This document shows positions 5,522 to 25,266 of a stretch of DNA of 64,000 nucleotides, one piece after another. Position 1 is the first letter of the stretch; each line of letters opens with the position of its first letter. This DNA comes from an uncultured Verrucomicrobia subdivision 3 bacterium (GTDB taxonomy: Bacteria > Verrucomicrobiota > Verrucomicrobiia > Limisphaerales > UBA11358): the NCBI GenBank assembly GCA_903918885.1, contig CAIXFY010000027.1:76542-140541 (forward strand). Direction: 5' to 3'. Under the pieces are notes generated by a model, which was not told the DNA's origin, did not search any database, and saw only the letters and a program-made list of their open reading frames with translations. A program made the position numbers and the translations under genes.

Positions 5522-5634
5522 AAATGAATTTGCGAAGCTGGATCAATTTGATGGCCGGTGCAATGAAATGCCCGGCGGCCACGACGGATGTTTTTAGACA
5601 AACCCGCCGCAGTGGCTTATTTTCCCCGATTCAC

Positions 5635-7602
5635 ATGATGTCATCATCTGCCCTGCGAATTTTGGCTGTGTGTGCGGTTGGCGCCACGGCGTTTTCTTTC
5701 ATTGCCTCCGCGCAAACCAGTTATTACGGAACCAACGGCGCGGAATACGCCGTTATCGGTCCGTTGGCGGGTGACCAAATGTTTCCCGATGCCGCACTTG
5801 CCACCAATGGCGGCTTTGTGGTCTGGCAGGATAATGCGACGGACGGCAGCGGCTGGGGCATCAGCGCTCGCCGGGTGGACAACACGTTGTCCGGCACCTT
5901 GAGCACTTTCCGCGTGAACGCGCAGGGTTCCAACGATCAGGAAAATGCTCGCGTCACGTTGCTCAAGAACGGCGGCGCGGCGTTTGTGTGGCAGGGCGGC
6001 AAAGAAGGCTACCAACATATTTTTGCGCGCTACCTGACGCCGACGAACACCTGGCTGACGACCACAGACATAGTCGTGAGCACCTTCATAAATAATTTTC
6101 AGGTCAATCCGGCCATCGCCACGCTCAACAACAGCAACCTCGTCGTGGTGTGGGCAAGTTTCAACCAAGCCAGCACCAACAGTCTGCTGGATGTGTATGC
6201 CAAAATTCTTTCGCCGGTGGGCGCGACGGTGAAGAGCGAATTTCTGGTTAATCAGGTCACCAATTACAACCAACGCACGCCGTCGGTGGCGGCGTTGAAA
6301 AGCGGCGGCTTTGTGGTGGCGTGGGTTTCCGAGCAGCAGCGGTTAGCGGTGGCCGCGCAGGGAACCAATTCAACTTATCGCACGGCGAGTTCCTCGTTGG
6401 TTCCGAGCGTGGATATTTATGCGCGGATGTTTTCGAGCAATGGCGTCGCCTCTGGCAGTGAGTTTGTCGTGAATCCAGATTACAATGTCTGCGCGAATCC
6501 TGTCGTGGCGTCGGCTTCGGACGGCAGCTTCATGGTCGCTTGGTCGCGGCGCGATCAGGCCACTCCAGTCAACGGTTGGGACGTTTATGCGCGCGGCTAT
6601 TCTGCTGCCGGTGTGGGTGGCAGCGTAAGCCGGGTGAACACTTTCGTGACCGGCAATCAATATGGGCCCCGGCTGGTTTCCATTGGCTTGGATTATTTGG
6701 TGGTCTGGACGAGTCTGGGTCAGGATGGTTCGCGCGAGGGGGTTTACGGTCAGTTCTTGCACAGCGATGGAACATTGACGGGCAATGAACGCCGGGTGAA
6801 TTCAACGACGGCGAGCCAGCAGATGCAACCGGTGGTGGCTTCGGACGGGGTGAGCCAGTTTCTGGCCGTGTGGACCAGTTATACCGGCAATCCCTACAGC
6901 TTCGATCTTTACGCTCAGCGTTACATGAATGTGAATGCTCTTTTGCAGGCCATGCCGGCGCCGTTCGTCTATGTTCCGTTCGTGGTTAGCAACAATGTTT
7001 ACCAACCGCAGTTGCAGGTGGCGTGGGCTCCGTTGCAGGGCCTGTCGGTTTCCAACTACCAAGTCTTCGTGAATGGCGGTGCCTCGCCGATGGCGGTGAC
7101 GGCGAGCAATATTTGGGTCATGACGGCGGCGAACGGCTTGACCAGCAGTAGCTCGAATTCCTTCCAGTTGAAATATGTGCTGACGGACGGGCGCGTATCG
7201 CCCCTTTCGCCATCGGCCGGCGGGACAACGTGGTCGGGAGCCAACTATTACGGGATTCCGTCCGAATGGGTGCAAGGTTATTACGGTCCCAACATTGCAA
7301 ATTGGCCAGCCAACGCGAACGCTCCGTTGGTCGCGGGCGGGCCAAGCTTGTTGCAGGTCTATTTGAGCGGCGGCAATCCGCTGAACGCCAGCACTTGGCT
7401 GAAGACGGCGCTAACGAAGACCAGTCAGGGTTTCTTCCTGAACTGGAACACCCAGCCGGGCTTCACCTATCAGGTGCAGACGACCGCGAACTTTGTGTCC
7501 TGGCAGAATGTGGGCACGCCCCGATTTGCGGCGGGCACGAGCGATTCAATTTATGTCGGAACCAGTTCGGTGGGTTATTACCGCGTGTATCTGCTCCGCT
7601 AA
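5635..7602 (+). CDS. Secreted protein with seven ~55-aa propeller-like repeats and a C-terminal beta-sandwich ...YYRV module
   Basis: The ORF is open from 5377, but a signal peptide appears only at the ATG at 5635 (MMSSSALRILAVCAVGATAFSFIASAQ). There are seven repeats of the type ...GGFVVxW....DGS..G(I/V)YA(R/Q). The C-terminus reads FTYQVQTTANFVSWQNVG...GYYRVYLLR. Confidence 0.65.
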   Translation: MMSSSALRILAVCAVGATAFSFIASAQTSYYGTNGAEYAVIGPLAGDQMFPDAALATNGGFVVWQDNATDGSGWGISARRVDNTLSGTLSTFRVNAQGSNDQENARVTLLKNGGAAFVWQGGKEGYQHIFARYLTPTNTWLTTTDIVVSTFINNFQVNPAIATLNNSNLVVVWASFNQASTNSLLDVYAKILSPVGATVKSEFLVNQVTNYNQRTPSVAALKSGGFVVAWVSEQQRLAVAAQGTNSTYRTASSSLVPSVDIYARMFSSNGVASGSEFVVNPDYNVCANPVVASASDGSFMVAWSRRDQATPVNGWDVYARGYSAAGVGGSVSRVNTFVTGNQYGPRLVSIGLDYLVVWTSLGQDGSREGVYGQFLHSDGTLTGNERRVNSTTASQQMQPVVASDGVSQFLAVWTSYTGNPYSFDLYAQRYMNVNALLQAMPAPFVYVPFVVSNNVYQPQLQVAWAPLQGLSVSNYQVFVNGGASPMAVTASNIWVMTAANGLTSSSSNSFQLKYVLTDGRVSPLSPSAGGTTWSGANYYGIPSEWVQGYYGPNIANWPANANAPLVAGGPSLLQVYLSGGNPLNASTWLKTALTKTSQGFFLNWNTQPGFTYQVQTTANFVSWQNVGTPRFAAGTSDSIYVGTSSVGYYRVYLLR

Positions 7603-7611
7603 CCATTTTGT

Positions 7612-9927
7612 ATGCAGCCAATGAATAAAAGCATTTTGTGGGTTCTGTTGCTGGCCTCGAGTCTGCAAACCTCGTGGGCATTCTCGCTCGCTGGGCCGGT
7701 GGGTAATGGTGGCGACAACTGGCAGGTTCCGGTCATTGGCTATGGTCCGCCTACCAGCCTTGTCGGTCCTAAAAATATTGGTGAAGAGTTTCGTCGCAAT
7801 GTTCCGGTGGTTTATTACACCTATGACGCGAATTTTTTTGGCTATTTTGGCACGGCGGGCGCGGCTTCGATTGACGGCACAATGACCATCTTGAACGCCC
7901 TGACCAATGTGGATAAATACAGTTCCCAGTTATCCGAATTTCCCGTGGAGTCGCGTCATCAAAATTATCAGGCTCAGGCCTTGGGCTTGTTTGATTTGAA
8001 ATCGTTTGCTCTGGGAGTCATGACAGAACAAGTTGGATTGGCTGATCCGATTGAATGGGCGTGGACGCTGCATGACCGAGTTCTGCCTGCTGGTGGCAAG
8101 TGCCCTGACAATGAAGAATACCTCGTGGTGCAAAGAAATTTCGACTATTTCTCATCCCCGTTGAACCAGTTGCAATACTCCCCTTACATCAACAACACGC
8201 TTTACAGCTACCAGATTTACGAGGCTTGCACGGGCGGCAACCCTCTGGCCTTGTCAGTTCCGTATTCGGCAGATCCGTTGGCCGATTTATACTCGCCCGT
8301 TGCCGCTTTTGCCATTGGTTGGGGCGATTATTATACAGGACTGACGAGAGATGATATGGCGGGGCTGCGCTATCTGCTCAGCACGAATAACATCAACTGG
8401 GAAGATGTAGCGGCTGGAAGTCTGCTGGGTGTGATTAGCACCAATAAAACCAACCCGCAGTCTTTCCCGCCGGTGGGAGCCACGACTGTCAATGCCGCCG
8501 GGTTTTATTATTTTACCGGCAATACCAATGGCGGTTTTGGCTATGGCGATCTGGCGGTTCTGCTTAGTTTTGCCAAAACCAATGATTTGCCAACCCTCCA
8601 AGCCGCTTATCCGGGCTTGGTGATTAACAGCTATTCCAACAGTCTGGTCTGGTCTTCCAACGCGACGTATTCTTCGTATTACACCAATCTGATTGGTTCG
8701 CCTTACGGCTCGCCGCCGACGTTTGTGGTGGTGACCAACTACACTGGTTACTATCAAACGTATTACTACTATCAATTTGGCAACCTTGTCACCAATCACT
8801 ACTACACGAATTCGGTGGCGACGTTGCAGACGCTCAAAGTCAGTGCGCCGATTGGTTCACCTTACGGCACGCCGGTCATTACAAATGTCACGGTGAAATT
8901 AACTAACCAGATTTCCGGCGACTTCTTTGTGCTGCCCTCCTTCCAGAACGGCGTTTGTCCACTGGATATCATTGATGGCACGCATTACAACGTCCTCGCC
9001 ACCACCAATCTCCTGACCGGTGGCAGCACGCTGGTCAGCAACAATACGGCCACGGTGAGCAATGCGGTTTCGCTGGTGACCTACTTCACCAACTATTCTT
9101 TTGCCATCAATCCGGTCACTTGCACGCAGACAACCCCGACGCCGGCGTTGTATCAAGGGATTGGCAACATCAAGTTTGTCCGGGCGGATTACGATTCCTT
9201 GCTGGGCCAGTTCTGGCAGCCGGTGACCAACTATTACACCATGGTCACCGTGACTAACAGCAAGGTGGGGGTTCAACACTTACAACGTGTGGTCACGCAG
9301 CCGGATTTCACTTTCTCGGCGGAAGATTTGACCGCTGGGCCAGCGGCGACACCCATTAATTTCGTATTTGCCCGCAACCTGAATTTTGACACGGCCAACG
9401 TGTTGCCCCGTCTTGCTGGCCCCGGCACGATCACTACCCCGACGACGATTTCGTTCAACAAGGCCGGACCGGTCTTTTTCAATACCCCGTTCAGCACGAT
9501 GGATGGCACGACGTATTTCAACCAGACGCCGGGCGGCGACATAACTGATTTCTTCTATCTTCCGTATTTTGTCTGGGCTTCTTATGACGGCACGACCAAT
9601 GCTCCGGTGGTGTTCCCGAATGGCACGAGCCTGGATAACTTGGCCAATCAAGTTTTAATCCAAGTCTCACCCGCGAGTCCTTTGCCTGACGGCGCGGCGG
9701 GTTTTGACTATGGCACGCAAGCGATTCAATTCACCGCCACCGGTGGAGCATTTACGGCACCCTACACTTGGACGGCGACGGGATTGCCCGATGGGTTGGT
9801 TTTGGATCCCAACTCGGGAATGCTTTCGGGCTTTCCTACTGTATATGGCACATTTGATTTTATCCTGACCCTGACGGACACTGTAGGCAGGTCCGTCCAG
9901 TGGAATTACACCATTACAATTCAATGA
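7612..9927 (+). CDS. Secreted protein of unknown function with C-terminal He_PIG-type Ig-like domain
   Basis: 771 aa with a signal peptide (MNKSILWVLLLASSLQTSWA). The C-terminus PYTWTATGLPDGLVLDPNSGMLSGFPTVYGTFDFILTLTD matches the putative-Ig (He_PIG) pattern. The Tyr/Asn/Thr-rich body has no motif I recognise. Confidence 0.6.
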   Translation: MQPMNKSILWVLLLASSLQTSWAFSLAGPVGNGGDNWQVPVIGYGPPTSLVGPKNIGEEFRRNVPVVYYTYDANFFGYFGTAGAASIDGTMTILNALTNVDKYSSQLSEFPVESRHQNYQAQALGLFDLKSFALGVMTEQVGLADPIEWAWTLHDRVLPAGGKCPDNEEYLVVQRNFDYFSSPLNQLQYSPYINNTLYSYQIYEACTGGNPLALSVPYSADPLADLYSPVAAFAIGWGDYYTGLTRDDMAGLRYLLSTNNINWEDVAAGSLLGVISTNKTNPQSFPPVGATTVNAAGFYYFTGNTNGGFGYGDLAVLLSFAKTNDLPTLQAAYPGLVINSYSNSLVWSSNATYSSYYTNLIGSPYGSPPTFVVVTNYTGYYQTYYYYQFGNLVTNHYYTNSVATLQTLKVSAPIGSPYGTPVITNVTVKLTNQISGDFFVLPSFQNGVCPLDIIDGTHYNVLATTNLLTGGSTLVSNNTATVSNAVSLVTYFTNYSFAINPVTCTQTTPTPALYQGIGNIKFVRADYDSLLGQFWQPVTNYYTMVTVTNSKVGVQHLQRVVTQPDFTFSAEDLTAGPAATPINFVFARNLNFDTANVLPRLAGPGTITTPTTISFNKAGPVFFNTPFSTMDGTTYFNQTPGGDITDFFYLPYFVWASYDGTTNAPVVFPNGTSLDNLANQVLIQVSPASPLPDGAAGFDYGTQAIQFTATGGAFTAPYTWTATGLPDGLVLDPNSGMLSGFPTVYGTFDFILTLTDTVGRSVQWNYTITIQ

Positions 9928-12900
9928 ACAGCATGCAACATCTCCATCGCTCGGCGAACGGTATGAACCGCTTGATGAAATGGCCGCTGTTTTGCGCGTT
10001 GTTGAGTCTGGCCTTGACGCGCCAGTCCTTGCTGGCGGGTGACTTCGCGGGGGACACTTATATTAACGGTACGACCATTACTTATCCCGGCACGGAAACC
10101 CATCCGCCGACGATTGATGCGACCAATTTCATCAATACTGGGACGTTCATCATCAATTTTACCACCTTCAATACCACTCAGCCGTTCTATGAAACTTCCG
10201 ATACGCTGAATTATACGAACACTGGTTCGATGATGGCCAACACCGGTTTCCGCTTCGACCAGCAATCCACCGGCACCGGATTGCGGACGCCGGCGAGTAG
10301 CTTTTTCAATCAAGGAACCATTAGCGGTGGTTCGGTCAATGATACGACCGATCCGTTCGGTGGATTTCTTGGTCTTTTTTACGGTTATTCCCAATGCTTG
10401 ATTAGCGCAACCAACATCGTGAATCCTGGTGCGGTGGTGGCGGGTCTGGACGGCCGGATTCAATTTGCCGGACAGAATGTGGATTTAAGCCATGCCACTT
10501 TGACCATGGAGGGTGCTTCGGCGAATGTGGGTGGCACCGGGAATTTTGGGGTAAATACGAATTTTTGGGATCCGAGTTATTATTTGGGATCGACGTATGC
10601 TCAATCGGCATTTTTCTACGTCCCACCTTACATATTGAGCCTGACCAATTCCAAGGCTTACGTCCATCAGGATGGTCTAGGCACGAGCAATGTCATCTAT
10701 CGCGCCGTTTTCATTCAGGACACCAGCGGGGCGGGTGTTTCCAACAATGTTTATTTCGCGCCGCCGAATTTTTCTGCCTTTGGCACCACCGCCGGTGGCG
10801 TGACGGTTGAATGGATTGGTTCGTATCTAAATCCTGCGGATGGCAGCAGTTCCACTCACTATCTGTATCTCAATGATGATTTGGGAAGAGTGACGTCCAC
10901 CAATCTAGCTACCATCAACGGCATTCCCGATAACTACCAGTTTTTTGAAAGCTCTGCTCCCATCTCGATTGGGGTGAATCCGGCGACACCGGGCTTCTTC
11001 CCCATCTTTCCAGCGGGTTCAATCAGTAACAGTTATTCGTTCGCTAACATCCAACTGATTTCCACCACGGTTTCCACCAACGCGGGCACGGCCAATCCCA
11101 CGGGGGCACTGACGAATCTGCCGGGTCGCATTGAAATTTATGCGAGCAATGAACTGAATCTCGCCTCGGCGCAAATCTCTGGGCCAAACTATTTGTCACT
11201 GCAATCGCCGCACCAATTTGATGGCAGTCCGGGGGCGATTATTGAATCGCCGTATTCGGATTTAAACCTTGGCGTCACGAATGGATTTCTGACCATTTCC
11301 AACTTGTTATCCCCGTCCTTTCCCATTTGGAGCGGCAACGTCCAAGCTTGGAGCACGCGCTGGTTGACGGTGGATAGCTCGGGCGTCACTAACGATTTCC
11401 GGGTTGTGATTATCGGCAGTCAGGTGAGTCCCGCCTCGCTTGCGCAGGTGCAGGATTTGATTTTGCACGGCACCAACAGCATTGTCATCAGCGACACTTT
11501 TAATGTTATCCGCACCTTTACGGCCGACGCTCAAAATCTCACACTGACTACCAATGGTCCCGGCAACGGCGCGACCTCGCTGGATGGCGAATTAAATATT
11601 GGGACGCCTAACATCTTTTGGGCAAATGCACTGCCCAACCTGCGCAACCTGACCAACAACGGCGCGATTCGTTTGCAGAACCAGAATGCTTTCAACGGCA
11701 CTTCGAACAATATCGTCATCACGTCCGGCACCCCGGCGGTGGCGGCGTTCAGCAAACTTTCGGAGTTGGACTCTACCAGAAATGTGGTTGCGAATGACCG
11801 CGTGGCCGTCGGCACCAACTACTATACCTTTGTCACCAAGATTACCAATACGGTTCCCAAGCAGGTTTTGATTGGTTCCAAGTTTGATGGCTCCATGAGC
11901 AACTTGATTGCGGCCATCAATCGTTCCAGCGGCGCTGGCACAAATTACAGCACCAACACCGTTGCCAGCGGCCAAGTCATTGCCAGTCCGTTGACCAACC
12001 ATGCTTTTGTGGTTACCGCGAAAACCGCCGGGACCAATGGCAACGCCATCTACACCGCCTTGGCGGTCTGGACCAAGTATCTGGCTTGGACCGGCAGTTA
12101 TACGAACCATCTTTCCGGCGGCGCGGATGCGACGCCCGGCAGCACCAACATTGCGGGATCATTTTCAACGCCCTACTATAACTTCATCAACAACGGCTTG
12201 TTGACGGATCAAGGATCGACCATCTGGGCGAATAACTTTGCCAACAGCGGCGTCATCACCAACAGCGCGTTGGGCTCGTTCATTTTGAATTCCATTACTT
12301 CCACCTTCACCAACGGAATTGTAATTGCTGGCAGTGATGTCGCCCTCACCGCCAACAGTCTGGTGGTCAGCAATCTCTTCCTCCAAGCGGGACATTCTCT
12401 GACTTTGAAGGCCACGAACTTACTCACGGATACCGGCGTGACCAACGGAAATATTTGGTCCGTTCAAGGCTCCGCCACCACGGGTGGTAATGGTTTGATC
12501 ATGCCCTTCAAACCGGCGCAGGGTGATTTGTTGGGAACGACGATTACGAACCATCTCTTTGGTGTGAGCCAGCTAAGTATCAACCAATGGGCCGGGCAGG
12601 ATCGTGGCGTCAGCGTGACTGGATTTACCAATAACGTGTCCGTCGGCCGGTTGATTTTGGATGTCCATGCGTCGGGCGGCTTGATGAAATTCTCCGGTGC
12701 CAGCGTCAGCAATGCGTTGTATGTGGACAGCCTCGAATTCCGCGATGTGCTGACCAACGGCATTTATAACAACTTTGATTTCACGCCCAATCTGTTCATC
12801 AACACCAATCTCGTCATCTACTTTGCCCAAGCGACGGCGAACGGAATTTCCATCGCGGAAAAAATTGATGCCGCCAGCAAAGCGGGGCGCAACAACGGCG

Positions 12901-13349
12901 GCCGGTTGCGCTGGATTCCGGCGTATGCGGGTCACTTTAGTTCCGCCAACGTAATCTATCCCGATGGCACCACCAACACGGTCAACGCGGCACTGGCCGC
13001 CAGCACGTCCATTGATTCCGACGGCGATGGCACTGCGAATGCCAATGACCCGACACCGTTCTTCACCAGCGCTCAAGTTGGGCTGACGATTTCGGCCACC
13101 AACAGCCCGGTGCTGGCGATGGTAATTCGGTGGAACAGTGTTCCGGGATCCACCAACTGCGTGTATTACATGACGAACGTGTCTTTGGGCGGCAAGTTTA
13201 CGCTCACCAATTTTGTTTCGCCGTCAGCGGTTCCTCCAGCGGGTGGCTGGCCGATTGTCAACACGGTGTTGGATCCGATTAATCCGTCGCAATCGCGTTT
13301 TTACAATGTGAAAGTGGTTCCCAACTCCACATTGATTTACGGGCCATGA
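9924..13349 (+). CDS. Large secreted beta-helix-like (adhesin-like) protein with TSP3-type Ca-binding repeat and C-terminal ...FYNV module
   Basis: The ATG at 9924 overlaps the upstream stop (ATGA). A signal peptide is present (MKWPLFCALLSLALTRQSLLAG). The body is long, Asn/Thr/Gly-rich and repetitive. It also carries DSDGDGTANANDPTPF and a C-terminal IRWNSVPGSTNCVYY...SRFYNVKV. The fold assignment is an inference. Confidence 0.55.
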   Translation: MNSMQHLHRSANGMNRLMKWPLFCALLSLALTRQSLLAGDFAGDTYINGTTITYPGTETHPPTIDATNFINTGTFIINFTTFNTTQPFYETSDTLNYTNTGSMMANTGFRFDQQSTGTGLRTPASSFFNQGTISGGSVNDTTDPFGGFLGLFYGYSQCLISATNIVNPGAVVAGLDGRIQFAGQNVDLSHATLTMEGASANVGGTGNFGVNTNFWDPSYYLGSTYAQSAFFYVPPYILSLTNSKAYVHQDGLGTSNVIYRAVFIQDTSGAGVSNNVYFAPPNFSAFGTTAGGVTVEWIGSYLNPADGSSSTHYLYLNDDLGRVTSTNLATINGIPDNYQFFESSAPISIGVNPATPGFFPIFPAGSISNSYSFANIQLISTTVSTNAGTANPTGALTNLPGRIEIYASNELNLASAQISGPNYLSLQSPHQFDGSPGAIIESPYSDLNLGVTNGFLTISNLLSPSFPIWSGNVQAWSTRWLTVDSSGVTNDFRVVIIGSQVSPASLAQVQDLILHGTNSIVISDTFNVIRTFTADAQNLTLTTNGPGNGATSLDGELNIGTPNIFWANALPNLRNLTNNGAIRLQNQNAFNGTSNNIVITSGTPAVAAFSKLSELDSTRNVVANDRVAVGTNYYTFVTKITNTVPKQVLIGSKFDGSMSNLIAAINRSSGAGTNYSTNTVASGQVIASPLTNHAFVVTAKTAGTNGNAIYTALAVWTKYLAWTGSYTNHLSGGADATPGSTNIAGSFSTPYYNFINNGLLTDQGSTIWANNFANSGVITNSALGSFILNSITSTFTNGIVIAGSDVALTANSLVVSNLFLQAGHSLTLKATNLLTDTGVTNGNIWSVQGSATTGGNGLIMPFKPAQGDLLGTTITNHLFGVSQLSINQWAGQDRGVSVTGFTNNVSVGRLILDVHASGGLMKFSGASVSNALYVDSLEFRDVLTNGIYNNFDFTPNLFINTNLVIYFAQATANGISIAEKIDAASKAGRNNGGRLRWIPAYAGHFSSANVIYPDGTTNTVNAALAASTSIDSDGDGTANANDPTPFFTSAQVGLTISATNSPVLAMVIRWNSVPGSTNCVYYMTNVSLGGKFTLTNFVSPSAVPPAGGWPIVNTVLDPINPSQSRFYNVKVVPNSTLIYGP

Positions 13350-13407
13350 ACCGCTGAACCCGGTCAAAGTGATTTACGGTCAAAGATTTTTTAATTTGAA
13401 ATAATAT

Positions 13408-16400: not shown

Positions 16401-19400
16401 GTTTGAAGGCCGGGTTCGTCCGAACAGTTTTACCAACGCCTTCACCAGCATCATGACGCGGAGTGCCATCCGCAATCATAGCAACTTTGCCAGGCTGCAC
16501 GGCGGGGCTACGCCCGGGCCGGGCAACGTGGGGCTGAATTATACCAGTTACTCGGTGAACAAGAGCGCGGATTCCATGTTTGTCAGTCTGGTTCGCACCA
16601 ACGGCAATCTGGGGCCGGCGGCGGCAAACTTTTCGATCAATCCCGGTCTGGCGCAGAGCGGGGTGGATTATTTCTACACGGGTGATTACAACGGCGCCAG
16701 CCCGCTGTATTGGATCGAGTGGGAATATGTTGGCCCGACTCGTATGCACAGCGATGCACTATTAGGTCAAAATGCCGTGCCTTTTGACACGGCTTCCGGC
16801 CAATCTTTTTCCGGCGTTTCCTGGCCGGCGGTCAACGTCACCATCGCGGGCAATACCAATTCTTTCAATGACCTTAATGCCCAATTTCAGATGGCCAATC
16901 CGGTGAAAGACCAGTTCTATCTCGGCGGTGAAGATATTGCGCTGGGCGTGGCCCTCGGGGAATCCTCTGCGCCACTGAAAATTATCGAAGACCGGCATCA
17001 GTCCGGCACGTTTGGTTTTGCTTCGCCCGATTATACCGGCACCGGCTTGGCCGCGCCGATTGCCGTGACCCGCACTAATGGAACTTACGGCGTCGTCTCG
17101 GTGGCTTATACCACCACCACCAACGGCAGCACGGCGGTGGCCGGCGTCGATTATCGCGCGACCAGCGGTTCGTTGAGTTTCCAGCCGACCGATACCAATC
17201 GAACTTTCAACGTGACCATTCTAAACAGCAACTACGTCAGCTCGGTTGAAAAGAAGGTGAACCTGCTGTTGACCGGCATTAATCCGCCGGTGAATGGCAT
17301 CGCCAGCTTGGGAACGACGAATGCCGTCTTGCGTATCATCAATCCAAATTATCAAGGCTACTTGAATTTGAGCACGAACACTTACGCGGCCAATTTGAGC
17401 GCGGGCTTTGTCAGCATCACCGTGACCCGCACGGTTGGTAGCAAGGGAACACTGACCTTGATGTGTGCCACCACCAATAACTCGGCGGTCAGCGGCATAG
17501 ATTTCACCGGCTTTACCAATTTGCTGACTTGGAACAATGGTGATGTTGCCCCCAAAACCATCAACATTCCACTGCTCAACAACGGTCAGGTGGGAACCAA
17601 CCGCCAGTTCGGGGTGGTCATCTACAACCCGACCAATGGCGTAACCCTGACGCCTTCCTTGTTTGCCGCCAACGGCACGACCAACGCCACCGTCACCATC
17701 AACAATGACAATAGCTACGGAACCTTCCAGTTCGCCGCGCCCAGCTACGTCGTCAACGAAAACGGCGGCTATTCGACCGTGACCGTCTTCCGCAATGGCG
17801 CGACGAACGGCACGGCCAATATCCAGTTCGCGACCGCTGATGCCACGGCATTTGCCGGCACAAATTATGTCGCCACCAATGGCACGTTGAATTTTGTGGC
17901 CGGCCAACTGGCGGCCAGTTTTAAGGTTCAGATTTTGAATGACGGCGTTTCTAATCCTCCGCCGGCCAACTTCTATTTCACTTTAACTTTGTCCACGACC
18001 AACCTTGGCGTGGTTTTGGGCACGCCCTCAGTGGTCAACAATTACATCGTGGATGATGCCAGTTTCAATCGTCCGCCGGGTGTCACTGACTCATCGTTTA
18101 ATCTGGGCACCGGCATGAACGGCGATGTGTTGGCGCTGGCCTTGCAGTCCACTGGCAAAATTGTCGCTGGCGGCACATTCACCACCGTGGATGGGGTTCC
18201 TGAAAATTATTTGGCGCGGCTGAATGCCGATGGCTCACCGGACACCACGGGCTTTCTCTCCGGTCTGGCGGGCGGCAATGGAACCGTCTATGCCCTCGCG
18301 AACCAGACAGACGACCAGTTGCTGGTGGCGGGAGCGTTCACCTCGTTCAACGGTCTGGTCCGCAACCGCATCACTCGTTTGAACACGGATGGTTCCACGG
18401 ACAGCAGCTTCAAGCCGGGTGCCGGAGCGGATAACACGATTTACGGAATCGCCGAAACTTTTATTGGCGGTGTCCGCAAGATTTATATTGGCGGCGCGTT
18501 CAGCACCATCAACGGTATTTCTCATCCCAATGTCGCGCGCTTGAATAATGACGGCACGGTGGACGGCGGTTTTGCTCCGGGCACCGGTCCAACCGCCACG
18601 GTTTACGCGGTGGCACCCTATCCGACCAATTCATTTTATGCCGGTCAATTGCTGGTGGGCGGCGCGTTCACCAATATCAGTAATTTTGCCGTGAGCGGCA
18701 TTGCGCGTTTGAATGCGAATGGTTCGCTGGATACCAATTTTGATTTCAATCTGAAGACCAGCGGTGCGGTTCGGGCGATTGCGATTCAGCGTGATAACCG
18801 GATTCTCATCGGCGGTGATTTCACTAATGTCAACGGCGTGGCGGTTAGTCACCTCGCCCGGCTGAATAGCGACGGTTCGCTGGACACCAATTTTGTCGCC
18901 AATATTGGTGGGGGCGTCAATGGTCAGGTCAACGGTATCGCGGTTCAACAGGATAGCCGGATTGTGGTCGTCGGCCAGTTTTCGCTGGCCAACGGCGTGA
19001 CCCGCAACGGCATCACGCGCTTGCTACCCACGGGCGTGGTGGATCCGAGCATCAATTTTGGTGACGGCGCGAACGGTGCGGTGGACGCCGTGGTCGTTCA
19101 GCCAAATGACCAGATGATTGTAATCGGTGGCGCCTTCACCCAATACAACGACCAGCCGGCGGGGCGCATCACGCGCATTTACGGTGGGTCGCAAACGGGT
19201 TCCGGCGCGTTTGAGTTCACTTCGCCCACTTATCAGATTGATGAGAACGGCATTCAGGCACTCATCGGCATCCGGCGCACGGGCGGCACCAGTGGCACGA
19301 ATGCGGATGGTTCCGGCAGCGTGGCCGTCAACTTCTCCACCAGCGATGGCACGGCGACCAATGGCATTAATTATCGGGGCGTGAACCAGAGCGTCAGCTT

Positions 19401-21981
19401 CCCCGCTGGCGAGGTGCTCAAGACTATTGCGGTTCCGGTGATGGATGACTCGAATATCACGGCCAATTTGACGGTCAACCTCGCGCTTTCCAGCCCGACG
19501 GCTCCGGCTATCATCGGTGACCAGCCCGTCGCGGTGCTGACTATTATCAATGATGACAACGCGGTGAGCTTCACCTCGGATAATTATCCGGTGGCGAAAA
19601 ATATTCTTACCGGCTTTGGCGAGTTGCATATAGCGCGAATCGGTTCCATCAGCGGCAGTTGCTCGGTGAGCTATTTGACGACGACCAACGGCACGGCTGT
19701 CAGCGGCACGGATTATTATCCGACCAATGGCACGGTCACCTTTAGTCCGGGGGATACGGACAAAACCATCTATGTGCCGGTCATCAACAATAATCTGCCG
19801 GAAGGTGACCGCACGGTGACTTTGATTTTGTCGAATAATGTCGGGGCCTTGATGTATGCGCCTTCAAACACGGTGTTGACTATCAAAGATACGGTGATTT
19901 CTCCGGGCTTGTTGAGTTTCTCAGCCACAAACTACACGGTGGGTTCCGGCGATGGCAGCACCACCATCACAGTGTTGCGCACCAACGGAACTTCCGGCTC
20001 CATCTCGGTGGCGTTCTACACCCAGCCCGGAACGGCGTTGCCGGGCATTGATTATACTCCGGTTAGTGGCACGCTGACCTTCAATGATGGTGACACGCTC
20101 AAGACCTTTGATGTGCCGGTGTTGAATAATCCGGTGGCTCAAATACCGGTCAGTTTGTCTGTGTTGCTCTCCAATCCTGGCGGCGGGGCAACCATTGTTG
20201 CTCCCACCAATTCCACGCTGACGATTTTGAACACGAACATCGGGTTTGCTTTCTTGAGCGGCACGAATTATTTCCGCGAGACCAATGGCAATGCGTTGAT
20301 TTTTGTCCGGCGTGTTGGGAGCGCAAACGGCAGCGCCCAGATCAATTACTCAACCACGCCCGGCACGGCGTTGCCCGGCGTGAACTACAATTCAGTTTCC
20401 AACACCCTGACGTTTGGTGATGGCGAAGCCTTGAAATCCATCGCCTTGCCGTTGTTGCACGATCCGCGAGTGACGGGTGATTTGCTCCTGAACTTGAACT
20501 TGTCCAATCCCGGCGCCGGCACTTCGCTTGTGAGTCCAAGTAATTCGCTCGTGGTGCTGCAGGATGCCGATGCGGGTATAAGCTTCACCAATTCGGCCAT
20601 CAGCGTATTGAAGAATGTCGGTCAGGCGGTCATCACCGTCGTCTGCACTAATCCCGTGGTCGAGCCGCCGGTGTCCAATACCAATCTCGCCCCGATGTCG
20701 GTTCAATATACGACGCTCGATGGCACGGCGGTAGCCGGAGTGGATTATCAGACGACAACCGGAACGTTATTGTTCACCAATGGCAACGGGACGAACACGT
20801 TCAATGTGACTATTTTCAACAACAGTCAGGTGACCGGCGATCACAATTTCTCGGTGCGATTGTTCAATGCCACCGCGCCCGGTCAGGTGGTTGCGCCGAG
20901 CAATCAGGTGGTCACCATTGTGGATAACAATTCTGGCTTGAGCTTCTCCCGTCCGGTTTACACGGTCTTGAAGTCCAGTGCTTATGCCACCATCACCGTC
21001 TTGCGCACCGACTTCACCAACACCGTTACCTCTGTTAACTATGCCACCGCCGACGGAACGGCGTCCGCCGGCGCGGATTATCTGGCCACGAGCGGCACTT
21101 TGGTTTTCACCAATGGCGAGACGAGCAAGACTTTTGCAGTCACCAATCTTCCCAGCTTGACGGTGCAACCGGACAAGACCGTGCAACTACAATTGTCCAA
21201 TCCCACCAATGGTTTTCTCATTGCGCCGTATGCGGCGACGCTCACGATTCACGATACCAGCGGCAGTCTGGTGGTGGCGGCGGGATCTGCATTTGCTCCG
21301 GGCGGGGACCCGAACAACAACGGCATCATTGATACCAATGAAACGGTGTCGCTGATGCTGGCGTTGCGCGCCAGCGGTGGAACCAACGTCAACAATTTGT
21401 CCGCCACGCTGCTGTCTGCCAACGGGGTTAGCGTGACTAACTCACCGAACTTGCCGACCCAATATTACGGCACGCTGACGGTGAACGGCCCGTCGGTTTC
21501 CCGGCCATTCAGCTTCACCGCCGTGGGCACGAACGGCCAGCAGATTTTGCTGACATTGCAGTTGAGCAATGGCGTGACGAATCTCGGCACGGCATCTTTC
21601 ACCTACACACTCGGCACTTGGGCGACCACGTTCTACAACACCAACCTCATCGTCATCAACGATGCGCTGGGGCCGAACAAACCCACGATTGCCGCGCCGT
21701 ATCCGTCCACCATCGTTGTTAGCAACGTGGGCGGCGTGGTCATCAAATCCGTAGTGACGTTGAGCAATCTGTATCACGGGTTCACCAAGGACATCGAGGC
21801 GTTGGTTGTTTCACCGGCGGCGCAAGACACCTTAATCATGGCGCATGCGGGCAATGGCGGTGCCACCAAGATTACTCTGACGTTTGATGATGCGGCGGCG
21901 GGTTCGCTCTCCAGCACCAATCTGCTGCAGACGGGCACGAATAAGCCGACCGCTTACACACCCTTAACCACTTTCCCCTGA
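13408..21981 (+). CDS. Giant (2857 aa) secreted protein: PPC-like N-domain, two 7x delta-60 propeller blocks, many Calx-beta domains, C-terminal P-domain-like module
   Basis: A signal/anchor segment is present (IGCAILLAGLLVNVSRAQ). Delta-60 repeats of the type DGKIV(L/V)GGNFTxVNGxxRNxIARLNxDGSLDTTF occur seven times at about 15300-16400 and seven times at about 18110-19190. There are repeated Calx-beta signatures, for example GTAVSGTDYYPTNGTVTFSPGDTDKTIYVPVINNNLPEGDRTVTLILSN. The C-terminus is IVVSNVGGVVIKSVVTLSNLYHGFTKDIEALVVSPAAQDTLIMAHAG...LTFDDAA. Confidence 0.8.
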   Translation: MQKLTSLRLENLVRIGCAILLAGLLVNVSRAQDTFATAQVIYGDSGSVNDVDNGFFTPEAGAPTIAGLAPQYTAWFQWSTTNSGEVEFDTIGSVDDSTGVIQLDTVMGVYTGNSLATLNLLAANDDLYPNFQVNVSCQNYYTFANTNFAATKVAPTSFPLENLNFIYQPFSGAMNQPYYPINTGPSGLRFNAVAGKTYYIAVDTRNLPGFISLNWSLHPSGVFRFATENSDLNGLTYDDGVTPMLLYQTAATESSGHTVTSGDPIRYSVFNNANGVLVTVTRVAGSTGKVSVDYTTVDLPTQGGDFLANGDLPAVANVDYLPQSGTLTFDDNEMSKTILIPVINYDPFNAFFQLVPRPNRDFGIQLVDDGGDTSPLVDSAESSDVPPPRVDPMFGLAMVRILDVNSDPRAITSVTSTNGAGNPVVTYTTIATNAVFNFEKANYRVYRAGSNPGQKFTVYVARTGTNTDAATINYTVNSRYPFGRKSTTIENINYTFPLTPGSDYATPDPSGKVGGVWGVTPDFTFPSGYTGTLTWAAKDFRAKPISFNILDNGSQQFNEDFQIDLYDLDTQGNPLQVGMVAQTTVTILNASDLDNNGGTSNINPPAGAVDELYNADYGADFFINTVPPNMAHPGTDGQVYGLALQPDGNTVVVGDFFTYNGMGRNCIARVTSSGYLDNTFDTSDGADGFISCVTLTTNNEILIGGNFTSFKGSLRNYIALLNTSGGVDTTFNPGQGFNGPVYALAQEPNGQVLVGGDFTQYNGVTRNHLALLNLDGTLDGTFNPGTNLTAAVSALGLQPNGQIVVGGIFTNVAGIHGQNYATRLNADGTLDTTFDPGSGPNEAVYAVGIQPDGKIVLGGNFTQVNGSSYNGIVRLTTTGQLDPNFYCGIGLDGPVYHLNIATNTIYSTTNSSVVVQTNFTIYVGGEFTAYNGTHRLGFARLNADGTLDTTFLDTAYNQFAGLTREYFGDPVGSVQASAIQPNGDVLIGGSFEQVGGGQFEGRVRPNSFTNAFTSIMTRSAIRNHSNFARLHGGATPGPGNVGLNYTSYSVNKSADSMFVSLVRTNGNLGPAAANFSINPGLAQSGVDYFYTGDYNGASPLYWIEWEYVGPTRMHSDALLGQNAVPFDTASGQSFSGVSWPAVNVTIAGNTNSFNDLNAQFQMANPVKDQFYLGGEDIALGVALGESSAPLKIIEDRHQSGTFGFASPDYTGTGLAAPIAVTRTNGTYGVVSVAYTTTTNGSTAVAGVDYRATSGSLSFQPTDTNRTFNVTILNSNYVSSVEKKVNLLLTGINPPVNGIASLGTTNAVLRIINPNYQGYLNLSTNTYAANLSAGFVSITVTRTVGSKGTLTLMCATTNNSAVSGIDFTGFTNLLTWNNGDVAPKTINIPLLNNGQVGTNRQFGVVIYNPTNGVTLTPSLFAANGTTNATVTINNDNSYGTFQFAAPSYVVNENGGYSTVTVFRNGATNGTANIQFATADATAFAGTNYVATNGTLNFVAGQLAASFKVQILNDGVSNPPPANFYFTLTLSTTNLGVVLGTPSVVNNYIVDDASFNRPPGVTDSSFNLGTGMNGDVLALALQSTGKIVAGGTFTTVDGVPENYLARLNADGSPDTTGFLSGLAGGNGTVYALANQTDDQLLVAGAFTSFNGLVRNRITRLNTDGSTDSSFKPGAGADNTIYGIAETFIGGVRKIYIGGAFSTINGISHPNVARLNNDGTVDGGFAPGTGPTATVYAVAPYPTNSFYAGQLLVGGAFTNISNFAVSGIARLNANGSLDTNFDFNLKTSGAVRAIAIQRDNRILIGGDFTNVNGVAVSHLARLNSDGSLDTNFVANIGGGVNGQVNGIAVQQDSRIVVVGQFSLANGVTRNGITRLLPTGVVDPSINFGDGANGAVDAVVVQPNDQMIVIGGAFTQYNDQPAGRITRIYGGSQTGSGAFEFTSPTYQIDENGIQALIGIRRTGGTSGTNADGSGSVAVNFSTSDGTATNGINYRGVNQSVSFPAGEVLKTIAVPVMDDSNITANLTVNLALSSPTAPAIIGDQPVAVLTIINDDNAVSFTSDNYPVAKNILTGFGELHIARIGSISGSCSVSYLTTTNGTAVSGTDYYPTNGTVTFSPGDTDKTIYVPVINNNLPEGDRTVTLILSNNVGALMYAPSNTVLTIKDTVISPGLLSFSATNYTVGSGDGSTTITVLRTNGTSGSISVAFYTQPGTALPGIDYTPVSGTLTFNDGDTLKTFDVPVLNNPVAQIPVSLSVLLSNPGGGATIVAPTNSTLTILNTNIGFAFLSGTNYFRETNGNALIFVRRVGSANGSAQINYSTTPGTALPGVNYNSVSNTLTFGDGEALKSIALPLLHDPRVTGDLLLNLNLSNPGAGTSLVSPSNSLVVLQDADAGISFTNSAISVLKNVGQAVITVVCTNPVVEPPVSNTNLAPMSVQYTTLDGTAVAGVDYQTTTGTLLFTNGNGTNTFNVTIFNNSQVTGDHNFSVRLFNATAPGQVVAPSNQVVTIVDNNSGLSFSRPVYTVLKSSAYATITVLRTDFTNTVTSVNYATADGTASAGADYLATSGTLVFTNGETSKTFAVTNLPSLTVQPDKTVQLQLSNPTNGFLIAPYAATLTIHDTSGSLVVAAGSAFAPGGDPNNNGIIDTNETVSLMLALRASGGTNVNNLSATLLSANGVSVTNSPNLPTQYYGTLTVNGPSVSRPFSFTAVGTNGQQILLTLQLSNGVTNLGTASFTYTLGTWATTFYNTNLIVINDALGPNKPTIAAPYPSTIVVSNVGGVVIKSVVTLSNLYHGFTKDIEALVVSPAAQDTLIMAHAGNGGATKITLTFDDAAAGSLSSTNLLQTGTNKPTAYTPLTTFP

Positions 21982-21987
21982 CCCGGC

Positions 21988-24549
21988 ATGAAAATGAATC
22001 AAGAAAATATCACCCCGGCGATGGCTATGAAAAACACTCCTCAAATTTTGAAAATGTCCGTGAGGAAAATATTGCTGACCGCTTGCTTGGGACTGGTTGT
22101 GACCGTCATGACCACTCCTTCGGCGCGCGCGGCGGTAACCGTCATGAAGACCTTGTCCGGTCATGTGCCGGCGGTGGTTTCACAATTGAGTGCCAAAGGT
22201 AACGTGGCTGCGGACACCGATGTGAGCCTGACCATCGGGTTGCCGCTGCAACATCGCGAGGCGCTGACGAATTTGTTGGCCCAGATTTATGATCCGGCCA
22301 GCCCCTACTATCATCGTTATCTGGCACCCGCGCAGTTCGCGGAGCAATTTGGCCCGTCGGAGCAGGATTATGCCGCCGTCGCCGATTTCGCGCGCGCCAA
22401 CGGGCTTACCGTGACCGCCACGCATCCCAACCGGATGTTGTTGGAAGTAAGCGGCAAGCCAGCGAATATTCAAAGCGCTTTTCACGTCAATCTGCGAACC
22501 TATAAACATCCGACCGAGAACCGCGATTTCTTTGCCCCGGATACGGAACCCAGTGTTTCGGCGGCCTTGCCAATTCAGGATATCAGCGGACTCAGCGATT
22601 ATGGTCGTCCCCAGCCGCACTACCGGGTCAAGTCGGTGGTCAAATCCTCGGGTTCGGTGGTTTCCAAGGCCAGCTCAAAAGCGAATGCCACCACGGGTTC
22701 CGGGCCTTCAGGAAATTATATTGGCGATGATTTCAGAAATGCCTATGTGCCCGGCACAACTTTGAATGGTTCCGGCCAGACGATTGCTTTGGTTCAATTT
22801 GATGGCTATTTGTCCAATGACATCGCCGCCTATGAAAGTTTGGCGGGGCGTCCCAACATTCCGCTCCAAAATGTTTTGATTGACCGGTTCAACGGTTTTC
22901 CGACCGGCAACGGCGGCGAAGTGGAAGTTTCCCTGGACATTGAAATGCTCATTTCCATGGCACCCGGCTTGTCCCAAATCATCGTCTATGAAGGCAACCC
23001 GTTTAATTTCCATCCCAACAACGTGCTGAACCGGATTGCCACGGATAATGCCGCGCGCCAAATTAGTTGCTCTTGGGGCTGGACCGGTGGACCGACCGCG
23101 ACCACCGACCAAATTTTTCAACAGATGGCATTGCAGGGACAAACATTTTTCACCTCTTCCGGTGATGGCGATGCCTATCCGGCCGGAACGGTTGATAGCC
23201 CATTTGGTTTCGGCACGCCGTCCGATAGTCCTTATGTCACCTCCGTTGGCGGAACGACTTTGACCATGAATGGTGCGGGTGCGTCCTACTCCTCTGAAAC
23301 CGTTTGGAACTGGGGAGTTCGTTTTGGGGCCGATGGCATTGGCAGCAGCGGTGGCTATAGCAGCAGCTACTACTCCATACCCTCCTGGCAGACCAACATC
23401 AATATGGCGGCGCGTGGCGGTTCACAAACTGCGCGCAATTTCCCCGACGTGGCGCTTACGGCGGATGATGTGCTCGTGATTGCCGATAGTGGGGTTCAAT
23501 ATACGGGCGTCGGCGGCACGAGCGTTGCCGCGCCGCTGTGGGCCGGCTTCATGTCGCTGGTCAACCAGCAAGCCACCAACAACGGACTGGCTCCGATTGG
23601 CTTGCTCAATCCGGCAATTTATAAAATCGCCAACAGTGCGGCTTACGCCAATTGCTTTCACGACACCACCACGGGTAATAATACTTGGAGCGGCAGCCCC
23701 AATTTATTTTACGCCACCAATAATTATGATTTGGCCACTGGCTTGGGCACGCCGAACGGAACTAATTTGATCAATGCGCTGGCTTCGGTCGGGGTCAATA
23801 ATCCCATCACCCATATTTCACCTCCGCCCGCGCCCTACGGCACAACCTTGGCCAACTTGAATGGCAGCAACCCGAATGGCAACTGGCAGCTTTTCGTTCT
23901 GGATGATGCGCAATTCAACACCGGCGTCATTTCCAACGGCTGGGCGGTCACGCTGACTTTGGCCAGCCCGGTGGGTTACTCGGCCAACCTCGAGTTGCTG
24001 ATGAGTGCTTCGTCCGCCAGCATCGCCGTGAGCAACAATCTCACTTACACGCTCGCCGTGACGAACTACGGCCCGTCCACCTCCAGCAACATCTTAGTTT
24101 TGGATAACCTGCCGACCGGGGTGACCGTGATTTCCACCGGCGGCGCAGTGCGCAACGGCGCAACTTTGAGTTGGAACGTCGGCACGCTCGCCGTGAATGC
24201 TGGCGTGCAATTAAGTTTCACCGTCCGTCCGGATTATCTCGGCACAATTTTCAATTACGCCTCCGTCTCGGCGGATACCGCGGATGCGAACACGGATGAC
24301 AATTTTGCCTCGCTCCAGACCTTGGTTACCGTTTCCAGCCGTCCGCAACTGTCGGCCGCCTTGCGCAGTGGAAATGGTGCGTTTCAATTCGCCGTCACCA
24401 GCGATCCGGGCGTGACCAACATCATTCAGGCCTCCACCAATCTGGTGAACTGGGATCCGATTTACACCAACATCGGCTCCTTCACTTTCACCAACCTGAC
24501 CGCGACCAACTATCCCCAGCGATTCTATCGGGCGTTGGTCGGCCAGTGA
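21988..24549 (+). CDS. Peptidase S53 (sedolisin / pro-kumamolisin family) with DUF11-like repeat and C-terminal ...FYRA module
   Basis: 853 aa.
- Pro-kumamolisin activation-domain pattern: PLQHREALTNLLAQIYDPASPYYHRYLAPAQFAEQFGPS.
- Catalytic region: EVSLDIEM, SSGDGDAY and the serine motif GGTSVAAPLWAGF.
- Then NPNGNWQLFVLDDAQFNTGVISNGWAVTL, LTYTLAVTNYGPSTSSNILVLDNLPTG, and a C-terminal STNLVNWDPIY...QRFYRALVGQ. Confidence 0.85.
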   Translation: MKMNQENITPAMAMKNTPQILKMSVRKILLTACLGLVVTVMTTPSARAAVTVMKTLSGHVPAVVSQLSAKGNVAADTDVSLTIGLPLQHREALTNLLAQIYDPASPYYHRYLAPAQFAEQFGPSEQDYAAVADFARANGLTVTATHPNRMLLEVSGKPANIQSAFHVNLRTYKHPTENRDFFAPDTEPSVSAALPIQDISGLSDYGRPQPHYRVKSVVKSSGSVVSKASSKANATTGSGPSGNYIGDDFRNAYVPGTTLNGSGQTIALVQFDGYLSNDIAAYESLAGRPNIPLQNVLIDRFNGFPTGNGGEVEVSLDIEMLISMAPGLSQIIVYEGNPFNFHPNNVLNRIATDNAARQISCSWGWTGGPTATTDQIFQQMALQGQTFFTSSGDGDAYPAGTVDSPFGFGTPSDSPYVTSVGGTTLTMNGAGASYSSETVWNWGVRFGADGIGSSGGYSSSYYSIPSWQTNINMAARGGSQTARNFPDVALTADDVLVIADSGVQYTGVGGTSVAAPLWAGFMSLVNQQATNNGLAPIGLLNPAIYKIANSAAYANCFHDTTTGNNTWSGSPNLFYATNNYDLATGLGTPNGTNLINALASVGVNNPITHISPPPAPYGTTLANLNGSNPNGNWQLFVLDDAQFNTGVISNGWAVTLTLASPVGYSANLELLMSASSASIAVSNNLTYTLAVTNYGPSTSSNILVLDNLPTGVTVISTGGAVRNGATLSWNVGTLAVNAGVQLSFTVRPDYLGTIFNYASVSADTADANTDDNFASLQTLVTVSSRPQLSAALRSGNGAFQFAVTSDPGVTNIIQASTNLVNWDPIYTNIGSFTFTNLTATNYPQRFYRALVGQ

Positions 24550-24556
24550 TCGGCGC

Positions 24557-25141
24557 ATGAAGCTCCTCGGTTTGACCGGCGGCGTGGGGATGGGCAAATC
24601 CACCGCTGCCGGTTTCCTTTTGCAGCTGGGCGTCCGCGTTGTGGACACGGATGAAATCGCGCATCAACTCGTTCAACCCGGCCAGTCTGCACTCGCGGAA
24701 ATCCGGCAGGAATTTGGCTGTGCAGTTTTTCTGACCGACGGTTCGCTCAACCGTGCCGCCCTTGCCGAAAAAGTTTTTGCCGATGAAACCGCGCGGCAAA
24801 AACTCGAAGCCATCCTGCACTCACGCATCCGCGAACGCTGGTCGGCGCAGGTGGAATCATGGCGGAAAGAAAATATTCCAATGGCCGTGGTCGTCATCCC
24901 GCTGCTGTTCGAGACGCAGGCCGAAACGGCGTTCGACAAAATCATCTGCGTCGCCTGTTCACCCCAATCGCAGCACGAACGTCTACTGGCGCGCGGCTGG
25001 TCCGGCGACCAGATAGCTCGCCGTATCGCGGCGCAACTGCCGGTGGAACAGAAAATGGCGCGCTCCCATTTTGTTGTCTGGTCAGAAGGCTTGCCGGAAG
25101 TCACCCGCCGTCAGCTTGCCGAAATCATCGGTAAAATCTGA
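24557..25141 (+). CDS. coaE: Dephospho-CoA kinase
   Basis: 194 aa. The P-loop sits at the N-terminus (LGLTGGVGMGKST) and is followed by VVDTDEIAH and IPLLFE, the typical CoaE layout. Confidence 0.9.
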   Translation: MKLLGLTGGVGMGKSTAAGFLLQLGVRVVDTDEIAHQLVQPGQSALAEIRQEFGCAVFLTDGSLNRAALAEKVFADETARQKLEAILHSRIRERWSAQVESWRKENIPMAVVVIPLLFETQAETAFDKIICVACSPQSQHERLLARGWSGDQIARRIAAQLPVEQKMARSHFVVWSEGLPEVTRRQLAEIIGKI

Positions 25142-25266
25142 ATTTTCCCTGTCCCCAGTTTTTCCCGGCGTGTCCCCACAACTGGTGACAAGCCAACCAA
25201 CGCGGATGTGTTACAATTTTGTCGTTGGAAGTTGTGACTCCAACAAAAAATTTAGAGTGTTGTTGA

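Follow-up and report, generated by a model that had tools for sequence, protein, structure and literature searches.

The question addressed here is whether neighbouring genes whose exported products share a C-terminal domain form a system of their own, or whether that domain belongs to a much wider family. It was raised by a 64,000-nucleotide stretch of DNA (the window) from an uncultured Verrucomicrobia subdivision 3 bacterium of the order Limisphaerales (GCA_903918885.1, contig CAIXFY010000027.1). Five genes of the window, g1 to g5, had been suggested in an earlier note to form an uncharacterised surface-display or processing system, with a dedicated protease and a module common to three of the products. 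This module, of about 70 residues and named here the FYR tail, is an instance of a phylum-wide, uncatalogued domain. On a structural model it is an FN3-like beta-sandwich that behaves like a tag, and it may serve to dock or retain its carriers at the cell surface or in the cell matrix.

The layout given in the earlier note was read again on the sequence and stands. The five genes are co-directional, with junctions of 9, -4, 58 and 6 nt, and lie downstream of secretin and exonuclease genes recognised by profile matches (Table 1); all five products start with a Sec-type signal peptide, as judged by reading the sequences. The kinship of the three C-termini was examined with a family profile hidden Markov model (HMM) built without the three cluster tails. 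This leave-out HMM recovered the tails of g5 (E 5.7e-17) and g1 (E 1.1e-8) and, more weakly, that of g3 (E 0.018), a divergent copy with an insertion of about 17 residues, which accounts for its score; with the full family HMM the g3 tail was matched at E 1.1e-6. An HMM built from the three cluster tails alone pulled out other C-termini of the same genome (E 1e-6 to 4e-3), and scans of the genome and its relatives, as the earlier note had suggested, gave a real family. Its consensus, ..L.W...G..Y.vQ.STNL..W....RFYR, is typically followed by 4-5 residues and the stop codon, and the last residue is Pro in 23 of 38 tailed proteins. No Pfam family matched the three tails, even at E<=10, an NCBIfam scan was also without match, and no description of the tail was found in the literature searched. 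The similar unit reported in a second Calx-beta protein of the window (residues ~178-260 of the gene at 33797..36994, minus strand) was matched only marginally by the leave-out HMM (Table 1) and was not picked up in the iterative search.

An iterated HMM search, run to convergence, detected 40 tail domains in 39 open reading frames (ORFs) of this 2.46-Mb genome, or ~2% of its ORFs, and 37 of the 40 copies end within 10 residues of the stop. The module was present in 20 of 21 relatives (5-147 copies each) and in 34 of the 71 genomes of a phylum sample (E<=1e-5), and 66,083 representative proteins matched the tail profile at E<=1e-3 when 1.84 billion such proteins were searched. The matches with the top scores carry 2-12 copies in tandem, and some small proteins are made up of copies alone. 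In 140 of 149 top-scoring representatives (those matching again in a local HMM re-scan, and multi-copy by selection) the last copy ends within 10 residues of the C-terminus; 39 of 40 matches sampled in five distant families also end the protein. A genome of the same order (94% complete, 2.6 Mb) has no FYR module, no g3 homologue and only a weak match to g2, and provides a natural contrast.

Nearly all carriers have a Sec signal peptide, judged in the same way. The other 35 carriers of the genome span 57 Pfam families, from enzymes to adhesin-like repeats, and their cargo includes a non-specific endonuclease, GH31, amylase, sulfatase, alginate lyase and pectate-lyase-like domains, and Ig, NHL and PKD repeats. 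The carriers cluster modestly along the genome (another carrier lies within 5 kb of 16 of the 39, 7.8 expected, P ~0.02), so that three tails in one block are unremarkable. With 39 tailed ORFs in this genome alone, and the distribution among relatives and representatives given above, the module does not mark a cluster-specific system.

The protease was considered next to this distribution. The product of g5 is an 853-residue exported protein of the pro-kumamolisin type, in which the catalytic domain is followed by a ~45-residue fragment, a DUF11 domain (PF01345, E 4.5e-19) and the FYR tail. Its identification as an S53 protease was upheld: PF09286 (E 6e-26) was matched, residues 54-599 align with the pro-domain and catalytic domain of kumamolisin (PDB 1t1e, E 8.5e-54), and the motifs GGTSVAAP, EVSLD and SSGDGD line up with the catalytic Ser, Glu and Asp motifs of that enzyme. 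With an activation domain, a catalytic domain and the catalytic residues, g5 is assigned to the sedolisins (MEROPS S53). It differs from 1t1e in having ~250 extra C-terminal residues, made up of the fragment, DUF11 and the tail.

If the five genes made up a self-contained display or processing system, g5 would process the tail shared by the co-encoded cargo. The tight junctions, the lack of an internal terminator, the presence of the tail on three of the five products and the g4-g5 adjacency kept in four genomes of the genus are all compatible with such a system. The tail, however, is found genome-wide and phylum-wide, and g5 itself bears it. S53 homologues occur at 1-6 per genome in the genus and at varied loci, tailed S53 paralogues are found at many unrelated loci (the open frame coincides with a module-bearing frame in at least 11 homologues), and the second S53 copy of this genome is the tail carrier on contig C9. 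Close relatives retain g1-g3 yet lack g4-g5 in the same slot, and outside the genus g5 homologues (E<=1e-20) were found in one genome only. Because it bears the tail, occurs in several copies elsewhere and is missing where relatives retain the tailed g1 and g3, the S53 enzyme is read as one more tailed cargo and not as the dedicated processing enzyme of the tail that the earlier note had seen in it. A self-contained display-plus-protease system thus appears largely refuted by the distribution, and we regard it as very improbable.

The fold of the tail was predicted with AlphaFold2 (AF2) from an alignment of 39 sequences, a prediction that the earlier note had proposed. The model is a confident beta-sandwich (pLDDT 92.7) with six main strands and one short strand, and the chain ends directly past its FYR strand. 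The nearest folds in the PDB, as retrieved with Foldseek, were FN3 domains (E 0.011-0.1, TMq 0.44-0.62), among them Tencon and the Fn3 domain of Pel3 (4u49, TMq 0.62, 29% identity). Like FN3 (PF00041), the tail has a Trp in an early strand, a Tyr in the next strand and an aromatic-rich last strand; unlike FN3, it is not matched by the Pfam fn3 profile even at E<=10. The six main strands and one short strand of the model compare with seven in an FN3 sandwich. In Pel3 and PelI the Fn3 domain is N-terminal, whereas the FYR module is C-terminal.

The FYR tail was also compared with modules that occupy similar positions in other bacteria. The type A C-terminal domain of Bacteroidota's type IX secretion system (T9SS) (Por_Secre_tail, PF18962/TIGR04183) is likewise a small beta-sandwich of ~70-80 residues, placed at the very C-terminus of many Sec-exported enzymes and adhesins that are unrelated to one another, and found on dozens of proteins in a genome. 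The two differ in phylum and show no sequence match, and FYR modules occur in internal tandem arrays, which T9SS C-terminal domains are not known to form. Dockerin, SLH and LysM modules are also terminal, non-catalytic and sometimes repeated on unrelated exoenzymes; in more distant g1 orthologues the calcium-loop-like linker ahead of the tail adds to the likeness. They have no sequence or fold relationship to the tail, and the analogy is one of function only.

From these features we propose, tentatively and at even confidence or somewhat less, that the tail most likely serves for docking or retention. Once exported through Sec and folded, it would be a non-catalytic module that keeps enzymes and adhesins on the cell surface or within the cell matrix, and the S53 peptidase would be tailed cargo among others. 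Docking is preferred over an export signal because tandem arrays and small copy-only proteins fit an avidity-type binding, and because the module co-varies with no export machinery. Surface display stays plausible as a role since the module is nearly always last, sits on unrelated Sec-exported cargo and corresponds to no Pfam or NCBIfam model; of the display system of the earlier note, this tag-like, uncatalogued module on Sec-exported cargo is what is left, and the cluster-specificity, the dedicated protease and the machinery are not. The surface localisation of the tailed proteins, their docking and their route across the outer membrane are all inferred.

Several results, some of them on the genomic neighbourhood of the carriers (next paragraph), weigh against docking. 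No binding partner or co-occurring machinery for the tail was found in the searches described here, no significant match for the tail was returned by Foldseek against the PDB (best E 0.011), and the conserved tail residues are mostly FN3 core positions, so that no recognition surface stands out. A conserved FN3-like core would also be expected of a passive FN3-like cap or spacer that has no targeting role and owes its terminal place to the history of domain shuffling; such a cap might, for instance, lend long exported proteins a C-terminus that is stable to the tail-specific proteases of the periplasm. Internal tandem repeats, as with ordinary Ig or FN3 spacers, and the failure to find machinery are in keeping with a cap, and an end 4-5 residues past FYR, with Pro so often last, would fit protection of a free end. 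Ordinary spacers, however, do not show a 90-97% preference for the very last position, and the tail is kept on 57 different cargo families and in 80 of 80 g1 orthologues; a passive cap is accordingly taken to be rather unlikely. The earlier note had held that its proposal would fail for a generic Ig/FN3-like domain found at any position in unrelated proteins, with no terminal bias and no co-occurring machinery. The module is indeed generic in its FN3-like fold, it is found on unrelated proteins and no machinery was detected, but its extreme terminal bias remains.

The genomic neighbourhood of the carriers bears both on docking and on its main rival, in which the tail is what a secretin-dependent export pathway recognises (type II secretion or type IV pilus-like) and thus a counterpart, in the Planctomycetes-Verrucomicrobia-Chlamydiae (PVC) group, of the T9SS C-terminal domain. 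Tail carriers follow both secretin genes of the genome, and for five of the seven long pilin-like genes the nearest carrier is at most 5 kb away (1.1 expected, P ~0.001). In five distant genomes only ~2 of 29 secretin matches were within 5 kb of any of 139 modules, with ~2 expected by chance; secretins were found in 70 of the 71 sampled genomes, and the module is missing from families in which a genome has 4-16 secretins. The H-X9-DG pseudopilin family (TIGR04294) does not track the module across the 71 genomes, and is most abundant in secretin-rich, module-free families, as measured with a 22-position model of poor sensitivity that missed the pilin-like genes of this genome.

On the export reading, g1-g3 would either be substrates of the Amuc_1098-type secretin encoded ahead of them or serve as its accessory parts at the surface. 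In its favour, g1 starts ~1 kb after the secretin of the window, and a 1378-residue carrier starts 7 nt after the stop codon of the second secretin, a GspD/PilQ-like protein encoded on contig C75 (27000-50000) in a pilM/N/O/P-like operon with three pseudopilin-like genes; three more carriers are nearby. In three other genomes a carrier frame apparently starts just after a secretin gene, as deduced from coordinates and frame lengths, and the order secretin, exonuclease, g1-g3 is conserved across the order Limisphaerales. There are also precedents. A Verrucomicrobium has been published with 67 pulG-like pseudopilin paralogues, and an induced cluster for alginate utilisation contains one of them (PMC13274419); the Fn3 domain of the type II secretion substrate Pel3, which is the best structural neighbour of the module by TM-score, carries key secretion determinants (PMC7949064). 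Searches for other sorting systems were empty: sortase (PF04203) had no match in the genome, where controls were matched, and the tails have no LPXTG motif; the T9SS C-terminal domain (TIGR04183) was not found, a weak negative as no positive control responded; and SprA (TIGR04189) had no match in this 91%-complete genome, again a weak negative since the control genomes included no Bacteroidota.

Against secretin-dependent export stand the chance-level adjacency of secretins and modules, the presence of secretins in nearly all genomes and of the module in about half (two secretin-rich families are without it), and the phyletic uncoupling of the H-X9-DG pseudopilins from the module, subject to the sensitivity of that model. 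The co-occurrence with secretion or sortase-like genes that the earlier note had looked to was therefore not obtained. Moreover, no known export signal resembles such internal tandem copies, a long pilin-like gene is near only 5 of the 39 carriers, and the housekeeping genes for the exonuclease and for dephospho-CoA kinase (coaE) have the same conserved synteny, so that gene order alone proves no functional link. Export through a secretin is considered unlikely on balance, if less so than a passive cap. Two exosortase (EpsH) homologues are also encoded in the genome (C4:45763-46479 and C84:1702-2508), for which reason a PEP-CTERM system probably coexists with the FYR-tail proteins; the anatomy of PEP-CTERM was not seen in the tails, which end 4-5 residues past FYR with no hydrophobic helix.

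With docking retained as the preferred role of the tail, the block that drew attention to it was compared across the order. A scan of species-representative genomes with the putative propeller of g1 gave 329 relatives, and the best 80 of these are all from Limisphaerales or subdivision 3 metagenome-assembled genomes (MAGs), from peat, soil and lakes. The MAGs vary in completeness and the relatives are not independent samples. Two membrane-anchored genes (up1 and up2), the secretin, the exonuclease, g1, g2 and g3 follow one another in this order in nearly all of the 80 loci, and the same order was found in eight other genera (regions from nine genomes). The gene up1 is kept upstream of the secretin in 61 loci or more, and the exonuclease keeps its slot in 76 or more; g1 orthologues were found at every locus examined, and g3 adjoins g2 in all relatives with the pair that were looked at. 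The slot 3' of g3 is occupied by g4 in at least 36 loci, directly by coaE in at least 17 and directly by an S53 gene in 5. In the four genus members examined closely, g4 is followed directly by g5 and then by coaE, and in families outside the genus the slot holds an unrelated protein of ~1330 residues; in relatives coaE comes after g3 or g5. On gene order and homology, g1-g2-g3 is a fixed trio, and g4-g5 a genus-restricted accessory pair, present in part of the genus only, in a variable slot before coaE. The block as a whole is best explained as a composite operon of Sec-exported surface or extracellular proteins, and not as one dedicated machine; this explanation, with docking of the tail included, has even confidence. 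Eight loci of this typically verrucomicrobial kind, with 57-68% identity, lie in MAGs labelled Bifidobacteriaceae, Acidiferrales, Sulfotelmatobacter, Sulfopaludibacter or Acidoferrum; these bins are probably mislabelled.

Of the trio, g1 encodes an exported protein of 655 residues (Sec signal read by eye) that consists of seven repeats of ~55 residues, an FN3-like segment, a degenerate calcium-loop linker and the FYR tail. It had no match in Pfam, NCBIfam or PDB sequence searches. Seven Trp residues, ~55 residues apart, are invariant in the alignment of its orthologues, and on this spacing the repeats are likely to form a seven-bladed beta-propeller. In more distant orthologues a calcium-loop-like linker, DSDGDGxxNxxE, stands directly ahead of the tail; the tail is terminal in 80 of 80 g1 orthologues.

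The 771-residue exported product of g2 has no FYR tail, and none was found in 70 orthologues. Its one recognised domain is PF05345 (He_PIG, a cadherin-like Ig domain) at residues 687-770, and a PDB sequence search also matched the Ig domain alone. An AF2 model from 49 orthologues (pLDDT 76) has an alpha/beta N-domain followed by long beta-hairpins; Foldseek matches of the model were limited to the C-terminal cadherin-like Ig domain, and the N-terminal 690 residues were unmatched. The mature N-terminus (window 7681..7740), right after the predicted signal-peptidase site, reads (A)FSLLGPxGNGGDxWQ and is near-invariant in more than 60 genomes, which points to a function at this end, be it processing, docking or strand insertion. 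A 562-residue paralogue of g2 in the same genome (C40:62874-64562) bears the FYR tail, in contrast to g2 itself, which ends in the He_PIG Ig domain; the tail is thus swapped on and off within one family.

The third gene, g3, encodes an Asn-, Thr- and Gly-rich exported protein of 1141 residues that was without match in Pfam, NCBIfam and PDB sequence searches and is suspected, from its sequence, to have a beta-solenoid fold. Its tail was detected in 33 of 61 g3 orthologues (E<=1e-3).

The accessory gene g4 encodes an adhesin-like giant of 2857 residues, with ten copies of the Calx-beta domain and delta-60/DUF5122 propeller repeats in two blocks (PF03160, E 5e-153; PF17164, E 7e-130; TIGR02608). 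It has no FYR tail and ends in a conserved C-terminus of its own, ...KPTxYxPxxxFP-stop; the last 130 residues have no counterpart elsewhere in the genome and are shared, in conserved form, by four genomes of the genus. This region (window 21600..21981) contains a conserved domain of ~125 residues, ...LTFDDxA...KPTxYxPxxxFP-stop. The ~45-residue piece of g5 (window 23785..23985, residues ~600-665) reads NGSNPNGNWQLFVLDD...GWAVTLTL. Neither recurs elsewhere in the genome, and their conservation is confined to the g4-g5 pairs of the four genomes; from their sequences they might be a split or docking pair. A P-domain (PF01483) split across the two, suggested by a resemblance seen by eye, was not supported by Pfam or PDB profile searches: the g4 C-terminus had no Pfam match at E<=1 and no P-domain was found for it in a PDB profile search, and the g5 fragment scored 16.4 bits (E 0.01) against PF01483, below the 21-bit cut-off.

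The genes upstream of g1 were assigned by NCBIfam profiles. The window secretin matched NF042912 at E 4.9e-105 with 352 bits, below the 750-bit cut-off, so that it is a relative and not an equivalog of Amuc_1098; its PF00263 match was over the cut-off. A PilM-like gene of the Amuc_1101 family (E 2e-142) lies just upstream of the window (C27:74590-76548). For up1 a PDB search gave no match, and thus no link to any solved Amuc_1100 structure, which leaves the NCBIfam match (Table 1) as its sole link to Amuc_1100. Compared with the Amuc_1098-Amuc_1101 cluster of Akkermansia muciniphila, the same NCBIfam families are found, all below the equivalog cut-offs, and by these matches the operon is a distant relative of the Amuc_1101/1100/1098 pilus-like cluster. 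Within the phylum sample, several families of the same class are without the FYR module.

Table 1. Positions of the genes, tails and other features in the window.
Feature	Position	Strand	Remarks
up1, membrane-anchored, distant Amuc_1100-family relative	9..926	+	NF038287 E 4.1e-20, 72.5 bits (below 180-bit cut-off)
up2, membrane-anchored, in Amuc_1099 position between up1 and secretin	928..1716	+	no Pfam/NCBIfam match; conserved position
Secretin, 975 residues, Amuc_1098-family relative	1713..4640	+	PF00263 E 2.9e-27
5'-3' exonuclease (housekeeping), between secretin and g1	4637..5521	+	PF02739 and PF01367
g1	ATG 5635 to TAA 7602	+	9-nt gap to g2
FYR tail of g1	7393..7599	+	...FLNWNTQPGFTYQVQTTANFVSW...GYYRVYLLR-stop
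g2	7612-9927	+	ATGA overlap (-4) with g3
g3	9924-13349	+	58-nt gap to g4
Divergent FYR tail of g3	13083..13346	+	~17-residue insertion; 10 extra residues past FYNVKV
g4	13408-21981	+	6-nt gap to g5
g5	21988-24549	+	coaE 7 nt downstream
FYR tail of g5	24352..24546	+	...FAVTSDPGVTNIIQASTNLVNW...QRFYRALVGQ-stop
coaE (dephospho-CoA kinase)	24557..25141	+	PF01121 E 3e-50
Intrinsic-terminator-like hairpin	25265-25294	+	12-bp stem, 7 GC pairs, then T tract
Internal unit of second Calx-beta protein	36215..36463	-	leave-out HMM E 0.037, 14.4 bits

The limits of the transcription unit were read from the same region. The hairpin after coaE is the only strong terminator-like one on the plus strand of the region, and coaE is probably in one transcript with g5; glgB is also found downstream of the block, alongside coaE. 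A promoter-like site is present at 5595-5623, inside the 113-nt gap upstream of g1; matches to the promoter consensus across the region are no commoner than in shuffled sequence. Further downstream, a gene of the phage integrase family (29116..30141) lies ~3.7 kb from the second Calx-beta protein, which has four Calx-beta domains, and the GC content falls to 0.50 at 32-34 kb of the window. With the integrase gene nearby and the GC dip, the stretch 32001..37000 is possibly a mobile insertion.

The separate strands can be joined in a wider reading, which we hold to be about as improbable as the passive cap. In it, the FYR tail would address cargo to a pathway of Verrucomicrobiota not yet described, dependent on a secretin and pseudopilins, that exports the cargo and displays it at the surface, by analogy of function with the T9SS C-terminal domain, and the trio g1-g2-g3 would supply extracellular parts of the Amuc_1098-type apparatus or be its first substrates. 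The accessory genes would then form a docked pair, in which the g4 C-terminus might bind the ~45-residue fragment of the g4-adjacent S53 orthologues and so tether the protease to the adhesin.

Verrucomicrobiota rank among the main polysaccharide degraders of soils, peat, lakes and the gut, and to our knowledge the way in which their large exoproteomes cross the outer membrane, or are kept on it, is not established. The FYR tail marks a gap in the domain libraries, as a domain of ~70 residues that is borne by ~2% of the ORFs here and has tens of thousands of representatives was matched by no Pfam or NCBIfam model. The locus described here ties a conserved trio of unassigned exported proteins to a relative of the Akkermansia Amuc_1100 pilus cluster, which is of interest in research on the gut microbiome. 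For annotation it carries a caution, in that a tail common to the members of a cluster is not evidence for a cluster-specific system. If the tail is a true address or docking tag, it would represent a new principle of protein sorting for a whole phylum, and would give a simple sequence rule by which the surface proteome of Verrucomicrobiota could be predicted.

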